DNA of 64,000 nucleotides, taken from the sequence record OL451225.1, one strand, 5' to 3'. Under the pieces are notes generated by a model that was not told where the DNA came from, made no database searches, and was given only the letters and a program-made list of their open reading frames with translations. Made by a program: the position numbers and the translations under genes. Shown here one piece after another: positions 5,653 through 54,700 of this stretch; positions within the stretch are counted from its first letter, which is position 1; each line of letters starts with the position of its first letter. This DNA comes from Escherichia phage P896.

Positions 5653-5660
5653 TATAAATA
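5653..5660 (+). promoter_or_regulatory. T4-type late promoter (TATAAATA) for gene 36
   Basis: Exact TATAAATA 25 nt upstream of the gene 36 ATG. Confidence 0.65.
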
Positions 5661-23136: not shown

Positions 23137-23140
23137 CTAT

Positions 23141-24973
23141 TTATAGCGTCGCATTCATCCAATCTTTACGCTGTTGGGAATCTTTACCGAATAGCATTTC
23201 GAACAGTTCTTTCCAGTTATCAGGCAATTGAACAACTTCGAATACCGGCTCGAGCAATACGCGTTTGTACTCAGAATCTTCCAAAGAACCAAGCCCCTTG
23301 ATATATCGGATGGTGTGCTTCGGAAGTTTATCCTTAGCTTCTTCATAGTCAGGAAGAGAATAGAACCATTCTTGTTTGTCTTTGAGCTGCGCAATAATAA
23401 CAGGAGTTTTCACAAAGCGAATTCGTCCTTCATGGAACAGCTCTGGCCAGTTACTGAAAAACGCCAATAACGATGGATAGATACTACCGACACCATCCAC
23501 ATCCGCATCTGTCATGATAGCAATGTTTCGGTAATTCATATTCTTGGCCGGTTGTCCAATCGTTAACCCAGTAATTGCACACACATCAAAGGCTTCAGCG
23601 TTCTTCATAACTTCAACAGCTTTCAGACCCCATGTGTTTTTAAACTTACCACGTAATGGATAAGCACCTTGCAATTCACGGTCGCGAACCTTAATAAATG
23701 GCCCTGTTGCAGAATCACCTTCGGTCAGGAACAGAGTCGTTTCCAACTTATCATTGCCCCATTCGTTGGCTTTGATATGCTTTTGTACCTTGGCCTTTGA
23801 AGCTTTCTTATTTGCTTTAGTCTCTGCTGCTTTCTCTGCAGCCAATTTACGGGCTAATGCAGCTTCAACAATCGGCATAATCAGCGGTTCATTTTTCAGA
23901 ATAGCTTGTGCGATTTTCTTGGCATCAATCTTGATGTGATTTCGAATTTCACCGGCCGGAGAAGTCAATCGCTCCTTAGTCTGGGAATCAAATCGCATAT
24001 TGCTCATATCGCGGATGAACATAAGCATGGTGAGGCATTCTTTAACTCGTGCCTTGGTCACCTCAATGCCTTTATATTTGCGCTTAATCGCTGGTTGAAG
24101 ATGTTCGCAGATATCATCCATAACACATTCAACGTGGTGCCCGCCATTCTTTGTATGAATGTTGTTGACATAAGTCAACTGACGAAAACCATCCGGGCTA
24201 GTCGTAAAGGCCATCGATACCGTATCAGTTTCCTGGATAACAACTTCGGTTCCAAATTGCTTGGAGAACTTCTTGAAGTTGCCATCAACCTTTTTACCAT
24301 TAAAGGTAAACTGAATATCCGGATAAACAACTGCAAGAGTCTGTAGACGGTCCAATGTAATATCCAGATAAATCTGGGACAGACTATTTTCTTCAAAGTG
24401 ACTAAAGTCTGGAATAAATATAACAGTCGTACCTTTACCCTTTGATTTCTTAGTCGACCAACATTTGTTTTCCATACCGTTGGAGCAGTTAACAGTGATT
24501 TCATTTGCACCATCAGCGGTAATCCCGGTGAACAATACAGAGAAAATATTAGTCAGAGAAGACCCGACGCCATTCATCCCGCCAGTTTTACGTTCAGCAT
24601 CATCGCCAAAGTTGCCACCTGCTTTTGGAATAGTCCATGCTGCAACAGGGCCAGGGATTTGTTCACCGTTTTGGTCTGTAACCATTGCTTGTGGAATACC
24701 ACGGCCATTATCAGAAACCGAAATCTGATTATCTTTAATTTGGACATCAATTTTATTGGCAAATTTAAAACTGGTGCGAATTGCTTCATCAACAGAGTTA
24801 TCGATAATTTCATCAATCAGTTTTACAATACCAGGAACATAGCTTACGGACTTATATTCACCAAACAAGAATCGCTCATGCGCTTCATTTGAACTGGAAC
24901 CAATATACATCCCGGAACGTTTTTTGATATGCTCGACGTCCGAGAGTACTTTAATTTCATTATTAATCATCAT
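23141..24973 (-). CDS. 39: DNA topoisomerase II large subunit, unsplit (T4 gp39 + gp60 equivalent; GyrB-like ATPase plus Toprim)
   Basis: Single 610 aa ORF with GHKL ATPase motifs (IDNSVDEA, DNGRGIP, GGMNGVGSS) and a Toprim-type C-terminal half (LFLTEGDSA...); T4 splits this into 39 (about 516 aa) and 60 (160 aa). Confidence 0.9.
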   Translation of the reverse strand: MMINNEIKVLSDVEHIKKRSGMYIGSSSNEAHERFLFGEYKSVSYVPGIVKLIDEIIDNSVDEAIRTSFKFANKIDVQIKDNQISVSDNGRGIPQAMVTDQNGEQIPGPVAAWTIPKAGGNFGDDAERKTGGMNGVGSSLTNIFSVLFTGITADGANEITVNCSNGMENKCWSTKKSKGKGTTVIFIPDFSHFEENSLSQIYLDITLDRLQTLAVVYPDIQFTFNGKKVDGNFKKFSKQFGTEVVIQETDTVSMAFTTSPDGFRQLTYVNNIHTKNGGHHVECVMDDICEHLQPAIKRKYKGIEVTKARVKECLTMLMFIRDMSNMRFDSQTKERLTSPAGEIRNHIKIDAKKIAQAILKNEPLIMPIVEAALARKLAAEKAAETKANKKASKAKVQKHIKANEWGNDKLETTLFLTEGDSATGPFIKVRDRELQGAYPLRGKFKNTWGLKAVEVMKNAEAFDVCAITGLTIGQPAKNMNYRNIAIMTDADVDGVGSIYPSLLAFFSNWPELFHEGRIRFVKTPVIIAQLKDKQEWFYSLPDYEEAKDKLPKHTIRYIKGLGSLEDSEYKRVLLEPVFEVVQLPDNWKELFEMLFGKDSQQRKDWMNATL

Positions 24974-25014: not shown

Positions 25015-25038
25015 AAAGCAAAAAGGCCCGAAGGCCTT
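25015..25038 (-). terminator. Intrinsic terminator-like hairpin
   Basis: aggcccgaaggcct hairpin followed on the minus strand by a T-run, at the 3' end of the lipoprotein gene. Confidence 0.5.
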
Positions 25039-31885: not shown

Positions 31886-32422
31886 AACATAATAATCACC
31901 AACAAATCCAGCATCAACTATCACGAATTTCTGGTCAACTGGAACAAACCATTCAAGCTCAGAATCAATCATGTCCATGTATTCTTCACGTCTTAACGTT
32001 GCCGCCTGTTCGGAACCAGAAGCAGTATTGAAGAATTCCAGTGGGACGTCAAGCGCGATTTTGCGCATCGCATCATGGTAACAAAAAGCTTTGGTCTGAT
32101 TCAATCTGACGATAGTCCTAGTCACATATTCCATTGCAGCAAAATCTCTGGCAATACCATAGTCTTCTGTAAAGGAGGTTATCCTTCCAAATTCAAAAGG
32201 TTGCATTGATTCTTTTGCTTCATCTAACAAATCAATCTCTTGTTGGGTAACCCCGCGATACAAGACTGTATCGGGTATAGATAACCTTGACTTGATGATT
32301 GAGTTAACGTTTGAATGCAAGGTCTTATCAACCTTTGATGTGCGGCATTCAAATAATGAAGCTATCTCCATTTCATTAAATTTTAACTGGTTGGGTTCGG
32401 TATCAGATTTGATGATGTTCAT
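31862..32422 (-). CDS. ModA/ModB-family mono-ADP-ribosyltransferase (R-S-ExE class)
   Basis: 186 aa; motifs VLYRGV (Arg), ITSFTEDYG (S-x-S/T), SELEWFVP (ExE); adjacent to its paralogue as modA-modB are in T4. Confidence 0.7.
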   Translation of the reverse strand: MNIIKSDTEPNQLKFNEMEIASLFECRTSKVDKTLHSNVNSIIKSRLSIPDTVLYRGVTQQEIDLLDEAKESMQPFEFGRITSFTEDYGIARDFAAMEYVTRTIVRLNQTKAFCYHDAMRKIALDVPLEFFNTASGSEQAATLRREEYMDMIDSELEWFVPVDQKFVIVDAGFVGDYYVLDCVQAQ

Positions 32423-32478
32423 AATGGCCTCTCTGTTGTAAGAAAGACCATTATGTCATTAGGAGGGGAGTAAGTAAA

Positions 32479-32733
32479 CTACTTAAATACTCCAAGTGGG
32501 ACGCCAAAGACTGCAATGTCTACGGCCATGCCAATCGGAGATTGATATGATGAGTAAGAACTTTTCGATTCTGGCGGTCGTTCGGCTTTAATTGTCTTGG
32601 ATTCAGTCTTAATCCTTTGTAAGCGATTAATTTTTTGTTGCTCAATTTCCTTATGAGCATGTTTACGGTCGATATCCAGTGCCGATATGGGGATATTTGT
32701 TAACCAGTTCATCGTTTCACCCATGGTGCCCAT
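32479..32733 (-). CDS. Hypothetical protein
   Basis: 84 aa ORF; hydrophobic C-terminus and an SSYSSY low-complexity stretch. Confidence 0.4.
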   Translation of the reverse strand: MGTMGETMNWLTNIPISALDIDRKHAHKEIEQQKINRLQRIKTESKTIKAERPPESKSSYSSYQSPIGMAVDIAVFGVPLGVFK

Positions 32734-32887
32734 GGAGGTGGGTCGTCGTAATATGAGGCCAGGTCGCGCAGAACTTCCGTTGGGAGACTAAAACCATGCT
32801 TCTGTATAATCGCATCAAGTTCGTCAACTAGGTCCACACGGGCTTCCGTATGAGCTTTAGGCTCTTCAAAAAGTTCAAATAAATCCA

Positions 32888-33376
32888 TTAGTAACCACCA
32901 ATCGGACCGTAACCATACATACGAGCACGCATTTTAGTATCTTGAATAGCTTCTTCTGTTAAAGTAAAGCGTAAACCAATATCAAAGTGCTTCCAAATCT
33001 GACGTTCAACTTCAGCAAGGTCGTCGGTAGTGGAAATCAGATATGTGCGACCTTTAAGTCGTTCTTCCGAAATTCTATCGGTATCTTTATAGAAAATATC
33101 CGCAGTACCTTCTGCATACGGGTCCGGGTGGCGATAGCCTTTGATGTGTAGAGCTTCGGAAACAGTAAACGGACACCCTTCAGCCACATTAACGTTTTTG
33201 TTATGATATACCTTCAACATAATATTTTCTGGCATCGTCAGGTTCATTAATTTTGTTTCCAACTCAGTAACCGAATCCATGCCATTATATGCAAAGATAA
33301 GACAGGCTGTTGCATCGTAAGGCCGTGTTTGCCCAGCAGAATCACGGACATAGAATTCTAATTCATATACTTTCAT
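32888..33376 (-). CDS. Hypothetical protein (Mrh-position)
   Basis: 162 aa ORF between the ART genes and soc, where T4 has mrh (about 161 aa). Confidence 0.45.
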
Positions 33377-33522
33377 AATGTTTTCCTCTTACCAACTAAT
33401 GGACCATCAGGAACTTTATTTTCCTTGATGTACTTTTCATTTTCTTCCATCATTTTACTGCCAATTTTCAAAAGCAAATCCAGTGCTTCTTTTGCCTGAC
33501 GTTCAGCTTCTTCTTGTGTCAT
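33373..33522 (-). CDS. Small hypothetical protein (49 aa)
   Basis: [49 protein letters not shown] read by hand; ATGA/TGATG overlaps with both neighbours. Confidence 0.35.
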
Positions 33523-33713
33523 GATTTATCTCCGTAGATATCACGCATCAGTTTAAGCACAGCTCGTTCAGCCTTCTTTTCCTGCATGACTTTAAGCCCT
33601 GTAGCCGCCCATTCTTCCGCTTCGCGCTGCATTTCTTCCTCGGCTCTGGCCACCCAAGAATCATCAATCCCTGGAGTAACCAACCAATCTTTAAGCCAAC
33701 TTGTAATTCTCAT
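33519..33713 (-). CDS. Hypothetical protein
   Basis: 64 aa ORF in track. Confidence 0.4.
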
Positions 33714-34073
33714 TTAATCACACGAGCTGGAAGACGAATCGCAGCTTCCTGAATCATAGGAGGAATAAGACGAATCACCAGTCCACGAACTGACAGCGGC
33801 CGCAGTAACCACAATCGGAGTGGTATCTATAATCGGAGTAGTATCAACATGACTCGTAGAACGTCTTGAATCCAGATGCTCTTTTAACTTTTTCGAATTC
33901 AATGGCAATGCACCTGGTCCGACATTACCGGCTTTTTCTGGTCGGCGACGAACTTCTTCCATCATACCATCGCCCATGTAAACATATTCTCTTAGCTTGA
34001 CATCTGGTAGGCTAACAGGAACCACACCTTCATTCGGTTTAGTCTTGAATAAATTCTTGAGCCAACTAATCAT
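33714..34073 (-). CDS. Hypothetical protein with Ser-rich C-terminus
   Basis: 119 aa; C-terminal SSYSSYDSGSCDSSSSSCD low-complexity tail. Confidence 0.4.
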   Translation of the reverse strand: MISWLKNLFKTKPNEGVVPVSLPDVKLREYVYMGDGMMEEVRRRPEKAGNVGPGALPLNSKKLKEHLDSRRSTSHVDTTPIIDTTPIVVTAAAVSSWTGDSSYSSYDSGSCDSSSSSCD

Positions 34074-34267
34074 AGGAAACCTCGTTTAAATTCAACTTTA
34101 CCATCATCACAACGGATTTCAATATTGAATTCTAAAGAATCATCATCGTGCATCATGAACGAGTGTACGACAACCTCATCAAACACACCCAGACCATACT
34201 TAAAATGTACATCATGGGCAATAACTTCGTCTAAAGTTTTGTTCGGTTTAATCCAACGGTTTAACAT
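34070..34267 (-). CDS. Hypothetical protein
   Basis: 65 aa ORF in track. Confidence 0.4.
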   Translation of the reverse strand: MLNRWIKPNKTLDEVIAHDVHFKYGLGVFDEVVVHSFMMHDDDSLEFNIEIRCDDGKVEFKRGFL

Positions 34268-34312
34268 AGTATTCTCCTCTGTAGTTGAGATAATTATACC
34301 ATCTCTATTAAA

Positions 34313-34338
34313 AGCAAAAAGGGAACCCGAAGGTTCCC
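34313..34338 (-). terminator. Intrinsic terminator after soc
   Basis: gggaacccgaaggttccc hairpin followed on the minus strand by a T-run, immediately 3' of soc. Confidence 0.6.
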
Positions 34339-34343
34339 TATAA

Positions 34344-34577
34344 TTAAACTACTGGGGTAGGCGTAAACATTGCCGCGTTCTTAGTTCGCCAATCGGCTGC
34401 ATCAGTCACTACAGTAGTATATGCTGCAACGGCCGAAGGGAAAGTCTGATAGTGCGCATCAGCAATACGGTGCTCGTTCGAATAGATTTCAAACGGAACT
34501 GATACTTCAACGCCTTTAACTTCTTTACCTTCACCAGCTGGATGCGTGAAGGTTTTGATATTAACGAAACCACCCAT
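34344..34577 (-). CDS. soc: Small outer capsid protein Soc
   Basis: 77 aa; GFVNIKTF and ADAHYQTFPS motifs match T4 Soc (GYVNIKTF, GAHYQTFPS) as I recall it. Confidence 0.85.
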   Translation of the reverse strand: MGGFVNIKTFTHPAGEGKEVKGVEVSVPFEIYSNEHRIADAHYQTFPSAVAAYTTVVTDAADWRTKNAAMFTPTPVV

Positions 34578-34608
34578 AATAAACTCCTTTGTTGTTTAAT
34601 TACAGGTG

Positions 34609-34616
34609 TATTTATA
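34609..34616 (-). promoter_or_regulatory. T4-type late promoter (TATAAATA) for soc
   Basis: Minus strand reads TATAAATA 31 nt upstream of the soc ATG. Confidence 0.6.
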
Positions 34617-34618
34617 AC

Positions 34619-34900
34619 TTACAATTTGGCGGCTTGGACTGCTTTATTGGCTTCAGTCATTTTAGCTAGATTTTCAGCAGTAGGATTGGCAATGTATTCG
34701 GCTGTAGCTTGAGCAAAAACATTATGAGTTTCGATTACATTTTTAGCATTTTCAGTATTCATATCAATTTCTTGTTTAGATAAATTTTTTAGTTGATTGG
34801 CTAAGAGTTCTACAAAGATTTCAACATTAGCGTTTTCAATTATAGCATTAATATGCTTCTTACGAGCTTTCTTAAGTTGACGTTTATTTAAACGAGCCAT
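34619..34900 (-). CDS. Hypothetical protein (soc.1 position)
   Basis: 93 aa ORF in track. Confidence 0.45.
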   Translation of the reverse strand: MARLNKRQLKKARKKHINAIIENANVEIFVELLANQLKNLSKQEIDMNTENAKNVIETHNVFAQATAEYIANPTAENLAKMTEANKAVQAAKL

Positions 34901-35418
34901 TAATAACCTCGGTCTTGGCGAGCAAAGTTCTCGGCATTTTTCAGGTAATACAGTTTAAAGATTTCTTCTGCTGTCAGACCAAGACCATGGAACATATTCA
35001 GAACAAAGTGCAGGATATCAATCATTTCGAATTTAATTTCGAGCTGGTCTTCAGGAGACAATTCATCAATACGACGATTACGGAATTCAGCATGTTGCGC
35101 TTTCCACGGCTTCCAGCAACTGGATGCGGCTTTCTCACCATTAGACATGCCACCGAGCGAAGTCAGAAGTTCACGGAATTCGTCGTCGACATAATCTTTC
35201 TGGTTACGAAGCCATGCAACAACATCGCCTGCGGTTGCCAATTCATCTGGATGTGTGTTATATTCTGGTTTTTCTGTAGCCAGACGAACCTGCAAAGATT
35301 TCTGCATATCAAGCATAATCTGCAGAGGGTCATCATTGCCTTTTAGGACATCATTATACGCATCTTGCGCTTTATCAACACCAGCAATCAGTTGAGAACA
35401 CTCGTTAAAATGAGCCAT
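34900..35418 (-). CDS. 56: dCTP pyrophosphatase (dCTPase/dUTPase) gp56
   Basis: Track ORF 34900..35436; likely start at ATG 35418 (MAHFNECSQLIAGVDKAQ...); MAHFNEC, DPLQ.MLDMQ, ETAGDVV.W, IDDEFRELLTSLG, SPEDQLEIKFE..DI.HFVLNMF and EEIFKLYYLKN.ENFARQDRGY blocks match T4 gp56 as I recall it. Confidence 0.88.
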   Translation of the reverse strand: MAHFNECSQLIAGVDKAQDAYNDVLKGNDDPLQIMLDMQKSLQVRLATEKPEYNTHPDELATAGDVVAWLRNQKDYVDDEFRELLTSLGGMSNGEKAASSCWKPWKAQHAEFRNRRIDELSPEDQLEIKFEMIDILHFVLNMFHGLGLTAEEIFKLYYLKNAENFARQDRGY

Positions 35419-35502
35419 TATATTTTTCCTTATCAATTCATATTGTTTGTATGTTAATTATATCATATTGGTTTAAAGCATAAATACAAGAAAGGAGGAT
35501 GT

Positions 35503-35700
35503 ATGCTCAAACTATCTAGTCTAATTCAAGCCATCAAAGGCAGTCGTAAGCGAACGATTCTGGTCCTTTCGATACTCTGTTTTGTTCTACTCTGGAATTT
35601 CATTGTTGTCCCTATTGCATTGGCACATGGTGTTATATTGCCAGTCGTCGCGCTCGAATCAGTTGTAGATGTTTCACTGGCATTAATCGGCCTTATATAA
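35503..35700 (+). CDS. Small two-TM membrane protein on the opposite (+) strand
   Basis: 65 aa ORF with a strong SD (aaaggagg, 5 nt before the ATG); hydrophobic segments TILVLSILCFVLLWNFIVVPIALA and VVDVSLALIGLI; the only plausible + strand gene inside the minus-strand early block. Confidence 0.45.
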   Translation: MLKLSSLIQAIKGSRKRTILVLSILCFVLLWNFIVVPIALAHGVILPVVALESVVDVSLALIGLI

Positions 35701-35808
35701 ATGGAACTTACTGGTTGTGCCTATCGCTGCAACACAAGGGGTGCACTTACCCCAGGTCACAATAGAACATATTCATTCCATCATCGGTTACTTTACCGGA
35801 ATCCCTTC

Positions 35809-36837
35809 CTAAACTTTTGCGTACTTCGAAAGTCGCATTCTCGCCATCAATCCTTGAGCAACGTTATCGGCCATATATGATTCGATTTGTTCAGGGGTTG
35901 CCCCTTCTGATTTAACCATCTCATTTATGTCTTTCGTATGCCATGGTGCATTGTCCCAGAACATAACAGCTTCGCCAGCTTCAACGAGCTTCTTCATACG
36001 TTTAATCGTATCCGGATGTCTTGGCTCGTTGTCCATTACCCATACTCTTGTTTCAGCATAAGGAACAGCTTCCAATGCCAATGTGCCACCGGTTATCGCA
36101 ATGCTGTTAGGGATAAACAAACTATCAATTGGACCTTCCATTACCCATACGCGTTTACGCTCATCAATCTTGTCTACTCCATAGACTTTGGAAGCTTCTG
36201 GGTGAGCTTTGATTGTGATATATTTTTGTGGTGCATCTTTGCGAAGAGCTCGTCCTTGGAAAGATTCGATTTCTTTTTTGCCGTTGAAGATAGGAATAAC
36301 CAAGCGTGGTTCATTCGTTTCATTCTTATACGTCCCAGGATTGACGGAGTTAACTAATGCAGGCCATTTGTTTGTAAACCATAACCGGTTCCAAACATTG
36401 CTAGGAATACACCGACTTTTTACATACTTAATTATCGGATGTGCTTCTGGTAAAGTATCGAGTCTTTCACAAAAAGCAAGCTGCTCGATAACCGGAGTTT
36501 TTTCTGGTTCTTTCGGAGTTTCTGCAACTTCATTGCGCTGTCTGCCAAAGGCATTCTCCTTATACTTCTCAACCATATATTCCCGGTGTAAATCCGGCTC
36601 AAACTCTTTTATGTATTTGCTTATATGCGTGGAGTAGTCACAGTTAAAACATTTCACGTAAACCGCGCCATCAGACGGATTGGTATACGCCCAGAATCTG
36701 GCTTTATGTGAATCTTTCTGGGAGTCGCCACAAACTTTACATCTGCAGTTTGCCTTAAATGTGCTCCCGGTGACTTCTCTATAACGTGGTTGATACGATA
36801 AAGCTCTGATTGCAAATTCTCTATCAATATATGACAT
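35809..36837 (-). CDS. 61: DNA primase gp61
   Basis: 342 aa (T4 gp61 342 aa); zinc-binding CxxC...C.NC motif at the N-terminus and a Toprim region (SFQGRAL.KDAPQKYITI, EGPIDSLFI, RVWV.DNEPRHPDTIKRM) matching T4 gp61 as I recall it. Confidence 0.92.
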   Translation of the reverse strand: MSYIDREFAIRALSYQPRYREVTGSTFKANCRCKVCGDSQKDSHKARFWAYTNPSDGAVYVKCFNCDYSTHISKYIKEFEPDLHREYMVEKYKENAFGRQRNEVAETPKEPEKTPVIEQLAFCERLDTLPEAHPIIKYVKSRCIPSNVWNRLWFTNKWPALVNSVNPGTYKNETNEPRLVIPIFNGKKEIESFQGRALRKDAPQKYITIKAHPEASKVYGVDKIDERKRVWVMEGPIDSLFIPNSIAITGGTLALEAVPYAETRVWVMDNEPRHPDTIKRMKKLVEAGEAVMFWDNAPWHTKDINEMVKSEGATPEQIESYMADNVAQGLMARMRLSKYAKV

Positions 36838-37056
36838 AGTTTCCTCATTTCAATGGCCCCGAAGGACCATTATACTGTAGGTTTATCGTCTTTGTTCTTA
36901 CGCTTTTTTGATGGGATTTGTTCAGGGCCTTTATTGACAACTGCCCCGGAAGTGGTACCTGTTGTGATATTAGTTGGGTTTCCACCTGCATCACCTGCAA
37001 CCATATCTTCGTTGATAAAATCTTTGAATGTTTTCATAACACCCCCTTTCCGCTAT

Positions 37057-37248
37057 TTATACAACAAAGATAGCTTTATCACCATTTGCATCAGTCACTT
37101 CATAAGTGTCTTCATGATACAACGGAATAATCCAGGTAACACCATCATCAGCGATAACATGGATTGCTTCTTGGTCTTGCGACACGATTTCATATTCTTC
37201 AAAAAGCTGGAAGACCGAAATCTTAGAGCCCGTACACATTGCACTCAT
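37057..37248 (-). CDS. Hypothetical protein
   Basis: 63 aa ORF in track. Confidence 0.4.
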   Translation of the reverse strand: MSAMCTGSKISVFQLFEEYEIVSQDQEAIHVIADDGVTWIIPLYHEDTYEVTDANGDKAIFVV

Positions 37249-37444
37249 ATTGTTCCCTTCTTTTAATCAATTGACGATGTGCCTTTTTAAGTTTACGAAT
37301 CTGACGTTTAGTCGGTCGCGCAACGTAAGCTTGTGTAGTTACTCGTCCAAAAACACCATACTTAGGCGAAGGAGTATCAATAAAGACTTCCCACTGGCAA
37401 GAGTAACTATATATTGCTTTAGAGAATTGGGTCAAAACAAACAT
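37223..37444 (-). CDS. Hypothetical basic protein
   Basis: 73 aa ORF; start codon lies inside the 45 nt junction repeat. Confidence 0.45.
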   Translation of the reverse strand: MFVLTQFSKAIYSYSCQWEVFIDTPSPKYGVFGRVTTQAYVARPTKRQIRKLKKAHRQLIKRREQYECNVYGL

Positions 37445-37485
37445 ATTAACCTCGCTTCATGAAGGCATTAAAAATCTGGTCATCA
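37441..37485 (-). repeat. Direct repeat copy 1 (gene-junction cassette: last 12 codons + stop + 5 nt + ATG)
   Basis: catattaacctcgcttcatgaaggcattaaaaatctggtcatcaa matches 37801-37845 at 42 of 44 positions. Confidence 0.8.
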
Positions 37486-37805
37486 ATATCAGTAGGCGGT
37501 TCTTGAGCTTTGACCCAAGCCCCTTCCAGAATGTCATTTGCTTCAGTAGATATCATGACCCCAATTTCAGGGTTTCCGGTTATCCAGGCTGCACAATCGC
37601 GGACATTCTTTTTATCAAATGGATAACCACGATTATCTTCACAAGGCCCATTCATTGTCATAAATGAACGAGCCTTTATGATAACATCATCTTTAACGAT
37701 AATATAACCAATCGCCTGATTAAACCGTGGCTCACGAAATTCATAATGGGCATTACCATCATTATTGCTCGCCAGTTCAAAATTCAGAAAATTATAATAA
37801 CTCAT
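37446..37805 (-). CDS. Hypothetical protein ending in DDQIFNAFMKRG
   Basis: 119 aa ORF; C-terminal 12 residues and the downstream junction are shared with the next gene upstream. Confidence 0.5.
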   Translation of the reverse strand: MSYYNFLNFELASNNDGNAHYEFREPRFNQAIGYIIVKDDVIIKARSFMTMNGPCEDNRGYPFDKKNVRDCAAWITGNPEIGVMISTEANDILEGAWVKAQEPPTDIDDQIFNAFMKRG

Positions 37806-48661: not shown

Positions 48662-49357
48662 TTAATCTTGGAATTCGTGGCTAGAGCCTTGTTCCATTGC
48701 AATCACATAGCTTGCTTGTGTGCCTTCAAACTTCGTAGCAAATTTATCATCTTTCGCCCAAAGCATAACACGGTAATCAGCCGGAATCATTTTCATGTTC
48801 AGTTTGTTAATGATAAATTTGAACGCTGCATCGCCTTCATAATCACCACACACCAGGGAATACAATGGACGCGTTAATTCTTTATCTTCGAGCTGGTTAT
48901 AACCATGGATAACAATCTTACCGTCTTTGTTGGTGATTGCAAAAGTATCCAGAGACAAACCACCAGCCACACGCAGAAGCTGCTGCAGGTCACTACCTTT
49001 CAGGTCGAAGATAACCTTAGCTACCGGGAAAGGAATCTTCTTAGCAGGGAACACGATAGTGCTCGGGTCAGCTGCAGGCCAGTGAATCGTTGAACGTTGG
49101 TCTTTGATAATGATATTCGATGCATCTTCAGCCAGGGATACTTCAGCTTGGTCAGTTACCAGGCCCAGAATACTTAAGAAGCCGTTCAGGTCATAAATTG
49201 CAGCTTCAAAGTCAATTGTATCATTGATTTCAGATTCACCATATGACGCTCCAGTTACAGAACGAGTCAGGATGGTATTACCCGGCTTAAGCATAATGCC
49301 AGAGTAAATGGAAGTGAAGTTTTTCAGAACTGCGATAGTGTCTTTAGAGAATTTCAT
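48662..49357 (-). CDS. 45: Sliding clamp gp45
   Basis: 231 aa; MKFSKDT.A.LKNF..I.SGIMLK, FWPAADPST.V.P.K.IPFPVA and MKM.P..Y..LLWAKG blocks match T4 gp45 as I recall it. Confidence 0.92.
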   Translation of the reverse strand: MKFSKDTIAVLKNFTSIYSGIMLKPGNTILTRSVTGASYGESEINDTIDFEAAIYDLNGFLSILGLVTDQAEVSLAEDASNIIIKDQRSTIHWPAADPSTIVFPAKKIPFPVAKVIFDLKGSDLQQLLRVAGGLSLDTFAITNKDGKIVIHGYNQLEDKELTRPLYSLVCGDYEGDAAFKFIINKLNMKMIPADYRVMLWAKDDKFATKFEGTQASYVIAMEQGSSHEFQD

Positions 49358-53925: not shown

Positions 53926-54177
53926 TTAATCCTTGGGAGTTAACTCAATTGTAAAATATAGATTAGCATTATCCACATGATAACGGTAATCAACGTTATT
54001 ATCCGGTGAAGTAAATTCCAGATTCCGGACGTTTAAAGGGTCGATATCAATTGGAAGACCTTTTATGTCTCGCAGATAAAGTTTAATGAAATATGGGAGC
54101 GCCGTAAAGTCTTCCTCGATTTTATCTAAAAAATCGGTAATATCAAATTGATGTTCCATATAAAAAATCCAAATCAC
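53926..54177 (-). CDS. Hypothetical protein
   Basis: 83 aa ORF in track. Confidence 0.45.
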
Positions 54178-54700
54178 CCTCTTTATCTTTGGCGCTCTTA
54201 TCAGACCCTGGCGCTTTAACTAAGGAGGATTCGTACTGTGTCATTTTGTCGTAGATGTCCTGGATAAATGTTTCATCAGCCAGAGCCACCATATCGTCAT
54301 CACGTGAATCGTATACGTTATGGACGAAGTAGCTATATTTCTTTGCCATTTCTTTACGTTCTTTTTTGATACGCTGAACGAAAGCATTGAAGCAAGCCAT
54401 TGTTATGTAAGCATGTGGATTATCGTATTTTGTTTCGTCGAAGTTGTGAAGACCTTTTATTGCGGCCTCAATTCCGTCCGCTATCATTTCTTGCTTCCAG
54501 GATTGGGTATATCCGGAGAAGTTGAAACGTTTGCTAAGACCTTCGGCTATAAGCATAATCGCCAGACCAATAACATCGTTCTGGCGAATAATTTTGTTCG
54601 GGTCAGTGTTCGCATTCAGCTTCTGTTTCCACTCCGAAATAGCTTTCAAAAGCTCTTTATTATTTACATAGTTATTCTTGGTTAATTTAATTTCGTTCAT
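54143..54700 (-). CDS. 55: Late-transcription sigma factor gp55
   Basis: 185 aa (T4 gp55 185 aa); [127 protein letters not shown] matches T4 gp55 as I recall it. Confidence 0.93.

Follow-up and report, generated by a model that had tools for sequence, protein, structure and literature searches.

Background

In bacteriophage T4, soc is carried on long early and middle polycistronic RNAs in which its ribosome-binding site is sequestered (PMC2988022, section 12; PMC3014915, section 29). Like e, 49 and I-TevI, it is a late gene with its Shine–Dalgarno (SD) sequence and AUG sequestered on long early and middle transcripts (PMC3014915). For the sequestered ribosome-binding site of T4 soc, PMC2988022 cites Macdonald, Kutter and Mosig (1984, Genetics 106:17), and going by the two reviews and the GenBank record X01416 the combination of promoter, terminator and masking structure around soc was already known from T4 in 1984. 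T4 late promoters have a box spanning −13 to −6, with the transcription start at the sixth base past the box; the commonest natural variant of the box has A at −13, and AT preponderates between box and start (PMC2988020).

The soc locus of P896 resembles T4 e, 49 and I-TevI in that a late promoter, predicted in P896, lies within or immediately ahead of the 5′ strand of a hairpin masking the SD and/or the AUG (PMC3014915), and in that the late transcripts are without the masking strand and are translated in those T4 genes (PMC3014915, section 29). It differs from them in the gene concerned. Additionally, the structure of the gene e leader and its 100-fold effect have been measured (PMC3014915), whereas the structure of the P896 soc leader is predicted.

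In the T4 record X01416 the annotated features are P(L)15.32, an SD, a RegA site, soc, the terminator t15.02 and P(E)14.98. P(E)14.98 is at the place equivalent to a restart promoter of P896 (34316..34293), and T4 P(M)16.53, in the same record, is at the place equivalent to the P896 gene 56 promoter (35480..35457). Among closer relatives, Escherichia phage SA35RD (OL960577) has soc annotated with a TATAAATA late promoter in front of it and, behind it, a rho-independent terminator and then an early promoter. Phage VR7 (HM563683) shares the P896 leader except that a T is missing directly ahead of the ATG, and its terminator matches in stem and loop but has a U-tract longer by one T. Both records differ from the description given here in that the masking hairpin is absent from their annotation. 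A literature search for T4 RNA-seq or transcription start site data naming soc returned nothing usable.

The soc locus of P896

The window analysed here is the whole 64,000 nt stretch of Escherichia phage P896 DNA (OL451225.1); the region around soc is that of a VR7/VR20-type T-even phage and is 98 % identical to Escherichia phage 212 across 1.8 kb. The ORF at 34344..34577 on the minus strand (ATG 34577..34575, stop codon 34346..34344) encodes the small outer capsid protein Soc, of 77 aa. Its product scores 64.6 bits against Pfam PF16855 (E 1e-17), well above the gathering cut-off of 27, and matches phrog_1715 with an E value of 3e-39. Identity to the VR20-type Soc is 96 %, and to T4 Soc only about 45–54 %.

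Gene order is as in T4, with 61, 56, a variable slot, soc, mrh.2 and mrh.1 on a single strand. Gene 56, encoding dCTPase, occupies 34900..35418 (minus strand) and is followed by a 93 aa ORF (orf93; 34619..34900, minus strand), whose stop codon is at 34621..34619. The late promoter box TATAAATA (34616..34609, minus strand; −13 to −6) begins 2 nt past this stop codon, and the 31 nt between it and the soc ATG form the leader CACCTGTAATTAAACAACAAAGGAGTTTATT (34608..34578, minus strand). The predicted late start (+1) is the G at 34603, the sixth base past the box. The gene after soc has its ATG at 34267 (minus strand), preceded by an SD.

The T4 soc locus is alike in most of these respects. The same gene lies between 56 upstream and mrh.2 downstream, on the strand of the prereplicative genes; TATAAATA precedes the ATG by about 30 nt; the 5′ arm of a hairpin begins right past the TATA box; and past the stop codon come a C(UUCG)G terminator and, directly behind it, a promoter. 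The two loci differ in the leader stem, which is CAUGUAAUU/AAUUACAUG in T4 and CACCUGUAAU/AUUAUGGGUG in P896 and is in another register, in the gene upstream of soc (segF in T4, orf93 in P896), and in the restart promoter, which is of the GTTTAC early type in T4 and of the MotA-box middle type in P896. The P896 locus is very probably orthologous to the soc expression cassette of T4, with Soc confined to the late phase by two layers of control.

The slot between 56 and soc varies. The product of orf93 belongs to phrog_5782, labelled virion structural protein, and a Pfam search with it gave no match. T4 and VR7 carry the homing endonuclease gene segF in the slot; in RB69-type phages it is without an annotated gene, and in other lineages it is filled by small, unrelated ORFs. 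The slot is a gene-replacement hot spot that ends exactly at the soc late promoter. Further upstream, between 61 and 56, a 65 aa ORF at 35503–35700 on the plus strand (phrog_2024) is a homologue of VR7ORF033w and RB32 ORF030w; its hydrophobic product resembles a small membrane protein, and dam is at the equivalent place in T4. Just 5′ of the SD of primase gene 61 (start 36837) there is a 9 bp UUCG hairpin without a U-tail (36851–36872, minus strand), which may be a processing, stability or translational element.

Phage records bearing Soc number roughly 975; the comparisons made here cover 54 soc loci taken from Tequatro-, Mosig-, Gapriver-, Dhaka-, Karam-, Kanagawa-, Winkler-, Jiaoda- and Marfavirus and from metagenomic viral contigs, covering at least nine genera. 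Searching the viral contigs with one protein retrieved close relatives only; an alignment query together with GenBank records reached the other genera. In one IMG/VR contig (L065, 395–700) soc is stopped after 33 codons and soc-coding sequence resumes downstream, apparently a disrupted gene or an artefact of assembly or duplication.

Terminator and flanking promoters

The intrinsic terminator of soc (34310..34339, minus strand) starts 5 nt past the stop codon. An 8 bp stem is capped by a C(UUCG)G tetraloop at 34339..34320, reading AGGGAACC-UUCG-GGUUCCCU in the RNA (a GGGAACC-UUCG-GGUUCCC hairpin) and AGGGAACC-TTCG-GGTTCCCT in the DNA of the minus strand, and is followed by UUUUGCUUUU, the DNA tail TTTTGCTTTT extending down to 34310. 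The stem of 8 bp with 5–7 G–C pairs, the UUCG loop and the U5GCU4 tract are those of an intrinsic terminator. The site is the top terminator-like site within 32000–37500 (5.5 kb). Its predicted folding energy is −13.8 kcal/mol (z −3.2), and 1 of 200 shuffled sequences was equally stable. The terminator is one-directional, the reverse strand being without a T-run.

The hairpin was found in all 53 loci with an intact soc, 45 of which have the UUCG loop. In an alignment of 20 sequences, 96 % of the cells were paired and compensatory changes occurred at 5 of 9 pairs, with 25 compensatory cells; none of 500 shuffles was as high.

A putative middle-type promoter follows at 34316..34293 (minus strand) and overlaps the terminator U-tract. 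It consists of a MotA-box-like TGCTTTT, an 11 nt spacer and TATAAT, with TGGTATAAT (34301..34293, minus strand) as its −10 part. A second promoter of this type, TGCTTTAAACCAATATGATATAAT (35480..35457, minus strand), precedes gene 56. Both match the pattern of MotA-dependent middle promoters, a TGCTT-type box about 11–13 bp before a TAnnnT −10 element, and are predicted from that pattern. Matches to the pattern number 36 in the window against 17.4 expected and are mostly on the minus strand. A generic sigma-70 scan of the soc flanks gave nothing useful; the flanking promoters were found with T4-specific patterns.

The promoter at 34316..34293 would restart transcription of mrh.2 at about 34286, and so the 3′ side of soc appears insulated, first by the terminator and then by a new promoter leading into mrh.2. 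P896, VR7, X20, Karamvirus and Marfavirus have a MotA-box middle promoter at this restart position, and T4, RB69 and many other phages have an early one of the GTTTAC type; between lineages, the promoter behind soc seems to have changed its regulatory class. The same close packing is seen elsewhere in the window. At 25038–24996 as at 34339–34293 (both minus strand), the U-tract of a C(UUCG)G terminator runs into a TGCTTT MotA box, followed by TATAAT, and the two sites have the appearance of compact terminator–promoter junctions.

The 5′ side is different. The original prediction had presented soc as an isolated late transcription unit, with a late promoter of its own and a strong terminator right after the stop codon, insulated from the early genes around it. 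A fully insulated monocistronic unit, transcribed from its own promoter only and shielded on both sides from early transcription, would account for the promoter motif, the strong terminator and the restart promoter downstream, yet it is unlikely. A scan of the minus strand from 35457 to 34339 for terminator-like hairpins found none before the soc terminator itself. The late box lies only those 2 nt past the upstream stop codon, and in every lineage examined the upstream gene abuts or overlaps it. T4 reviews place soc on polycistronic early and middle RNA, and the conserved anti-AUG/anti-SD arm upstream of the late +1, described below, would be purposeless without read-through.

Since no terminator stands between the gene 56 promoter and soc, a 56-orf93-soc RNA of about 1.1 kb is expected, with gene 56 and orf93 as the upstream genes co-transcribed with soc; the promoter at 35480..35457 is the likely source of the RNA that would enter soc. 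Insulation from the neighbouring early genes thus holds for the 3′ side and fails, as a transcriptional barrier, on the 5′ side. The late-type promoter and the terminator of the predicted unit are borne out, but its insulation from upstream transcription is not. Setting a monocistronic soc RNA against a read-through RNA as alternatives was a mistaken premise, as both are expected, and the separation of soc from early expression would be translational rather than due to a barrier to transcription.

A predicted leader hairpin over the soc start codon

The soc leader can form a hairpin with the 5′ arm CACCUGUAAU (34608..34599, minus strand) and the 3′ arm AUUAUGGGUG (34580..34571, minus strand), the latter holding the start codon. 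The soc SD, GGAG (34587..34584, minus strand), is in the hairpin loop and is predicted to be unpaired with a probability of about 0.8 in all RNA forms. The GC-rich half of the 5′ arm, CACCU (34608..34604), is upstream of the predicted +1 and is present in the read-through RNA only. It makes up 5 of the 10 arm bases and is the only part of the arm that forms C–G pairs, so that the late RNA is left without them.

The two RNAs are predicted to differ accordingly in their fold. The probability that the AUG is unpaired is 0.01 in read-through RNAs of 97–421 nt. In the late RNA it is 0.63 with 21 nt of 3′ context and 0.12–0.24 with longer 3′ contexts, in which the late-RNA AUG is thus mostly paired as well. 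Opening the ribosome site is predicted to cost 11.8 kcal/mol in the P896 read-through RNA versus 3.0 kcal/mol in the late RNA. Across 31 distinct leaders the mean difference in opening energy was +7.8 kcal/mol, exceeding 1 kcal/mol in 29; it was near zero in JS10 copy b and in Manna, and 2.2 kcal/mol in T4 with an assumed +1. When the 13 nt arm was shuffled, the observed AUG pairing was reached in 10 of 500 cases. The minimum free energy of the whole leader was unremarkable against shuffles (z −0.42); the case for the hairpin rests on which bases pair, as tested by arm shuffles and opening energy, and on covariation.

Covariation in the leader is modest. In the register of the window, 92.8 % of cells were paired among 14 distinct related leaders, versus 34–52 % in slid controls, and three compensatory pairs were found among these sequences. 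In Kanagawavirus an A–U pair has become G–C through a synonymous GGU-to-GGC change in codon 2, the G–U intermediate of the A–U to G–C change being seen in a VR20-type contig. Winklervirus likewise has a change from A–U to G–C, and the third pair has changed from A–U to U–A. A single consensus structure for all lineages was attempted and failed, as T4-type leaders pair with a shift of 2; covariation was therefore counted in the window-type register only. The T4 leader forms its CAUGUAAUU/AAUUACAUG stem in this shifted register. In Jiaodavirus and Marfavirus the same −5 to −1 bases (CUCCU and UUCCU) pair with the SD instead, and in Karamvirus the hairpin is weak.

As in the class of sequestered ribosome-binding sites formed by e, soc, 49 and I-TevI, the AUG is in the 3′ strand, the 5′ strand is missing from the late RNA in its C–G-pairing half, and compensatory changes conserve the pairing among relatives. 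An Rfam search of the leader region assigned it to no family, giving two matches far below the gathering scores.

Stem loops of this kind might instead act mainly on RNA stability or in protein binding. The leader and 3′ hairpins could, for example, serve as a RegA operator, present the GGAG loop to RegB or protect the 3′ end from exonucleases, and masking and termination would then not be their main roles. X01416 annotates a RegA-binding sequence across the T4 soc start, the GGAG of P896 is unpaired in the loop and RegB cuts unpaired GGAG in early RNAs, and C(UUCG)G hairpins, with their high stability, could shield 3′ ends. Such roles could, however, coexist with masking or termination. A U-tract with a restart promoter immediately behind it indicates genuine termination, and in Jiaoda- and Marfavirus the arm pairs with the SD itself, as suits a masked ribosome site rather than presentation of GGAG. 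That stability or binding is the main function is quite improbable, and masking of the ribosome site together with termination remains the preferred reading.

Conservation of the late promoter

The count of the late promoter motif is uninformative by itself. With 4.55 copies of TATAAATA expected, the 64 kb window contains 7, a count that 16 of 100 shuffles reached, so the argument for a soc late promoter is one of position and conservation. Of these 7 copies, six lie 12–45 nt upstream of an SD and ATG. Over the 54 soc loci, ATAAATA is invariant (54/54) and lies 27–34 nt before the ATG; 43 loci have TATAAATA and 11 have AATAAATA, the T/A difference at −13 being the sole variation. A motif-anchored alignment of these loci carries 2.0 bits per position over ATAAATA versus less than 0.9 bit in the 30 nt upstream, and the motif is kept across 39 distinct, mostly unrelated upstream contexts. 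The predicted promoter of soc is thus confirmed as an exact match in a conserved position. That TATAAATA is a chance AT-rich 8-mer, with soc expressed from upstream promoters only, would suit a window count no higher than chance but is scarcely credible given the invariance of ATAAATA at a fixed distance from the ATG in so many contexts, a sole variant that is also the commonest natural one in T4, and the annotation of the equivalent T4 site as P(L)15.32.

The box at −13 to −6 is that of T4 late promoters, in which no −35 element is needed, and the window encodes both the late sigma factor gp55 (54158..54700, 80 % identity by tblastn) and the sliding clamp gp45 (48671..49357, 61 % identity by tblastn). 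One feature deviates. The segment from −5 to +1, CACCU-G, is GC-rich (4 of 6 bases G or C), in contrast to the usual AT-rich T4 late promoters; the AT-rich segment between box and start is a statistical tendency among late promoters and no strict requirement. The GC-rich segment could weaken the soc late promoter, and may reflect a trade-off between promoter and hairpin, the same bases being needed for the hairpin.

The automatic motif finder picked TTTAAATA in the leader loop of T4 and SV76, which was rejected as a late box. Five more TATAAATA sites in the window, at 571 (+), 5653 (+), 10118 (+), 23138 (−) and 37054 (−), lie at the 12–45 nt spacing upstream of an SD and ATG; these are likely late promoters. 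Behind the site at 23145..23138 (minus strand) a GGGAGAAUAUUCUCCC hairpin stands at the predicted +1, and the site at 5653 (+) comes after another UUCG terminator.

Proposed expression of soc

Direct observation on these loci covers the sequence elements, how they are conserved and covary, and the difference in predicted fold between the two RNAs; promoter activity, read-through and the translational block are inferred for P896 by analogy with T4. In the orthologous cassette as proposed here, RNA synthesized before the late phase would start at the middle-type promoter of gene 56, possibly further upstream, and read through orf93 into soc. This read-through 56-orf93-soc RNA, of about 1.1 kb, would stop at the same terminator as the late RNA (34339..34310). 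In it, CACCU would extend the CACCUGUAAU/AUUAUGGGUG stem and bury the soc AUG, leaving the gene untranslated; this is the second of the two layers. The first is late transcription: late in infection, RNA polymerase with gp55, gp33 and gp45 would start at about 34603, past TATAAATA, and stop at the UUCG-tetraloop terminator at about 34316, producing a monocistronic soc RNA of about 290 nt. Being without CACCU, this late RNA would have an open soc ribosome site. The middle-type promoter fused to the terminator U-tract would then restart transcription of the downstream prereplicative genes, mrh.2 and beyond.

For most of the records listed, the stretch homologous to the window by BLAST runs from the late promoter motif to the terminator U-tract. 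JS10 carries two tandem soc genes (locus L032, 340–1000), each with [T/A]ATAAATA, an anti-AUG arm and a UUCG terminator, and the second soc promoter follows directly after the first terminator. The annotated start of the first JS10 copy (387) is probably 12 nt too far upstream, as GGAG precedes the ATG at 399.

There is roughly an even chance that soc is, beyond this, a self-contained and portable module for late expression, with the TATA box and the U-tract as its edges, in which the arm has been re-matched and the class of the restart promoter switched. The portable module would explain why homology between lineages begins and ends at those edges and why the tandem copies of JS10 carry all of the elements, a reading evenly balanced on present comparisons. 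Likewise, it could just as well be true as not that the −5 to −1 arm has found new partners as lineages diverged: the AUG-proximal codons in some, a shifted register or the SD in others. If true, the portable module would provide a comparative account of a promoter discriminator co-evolving with coding sequence. To our knowledge, such co-evolution of the soc promoter discriminator with coding sequence has not been laid out before. The comparative picture is otherwise only mildly new, and its novelty lies in the sharp edges of the cassette and the lineage-specific re-matching of the arm opposite the ribosome-binding site.

Implications

Beyond annotation, the arrangement described here is of little importance. 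Soc is widely used for capsid display, and for engineering it is relevant that the 31 nt leader and the first three codons of soc are under RNA-structure constraint; altering the leader or the first codons may give premature or altered expression of Soc. The classic T4 solution for a structural gene inside a prereplicative block, a late promoter embedded in a silencing hairpin and combined with a shared terminator, has been kept in this Gaprivervirus-type phage and in at least nine genera of T-even relatives.
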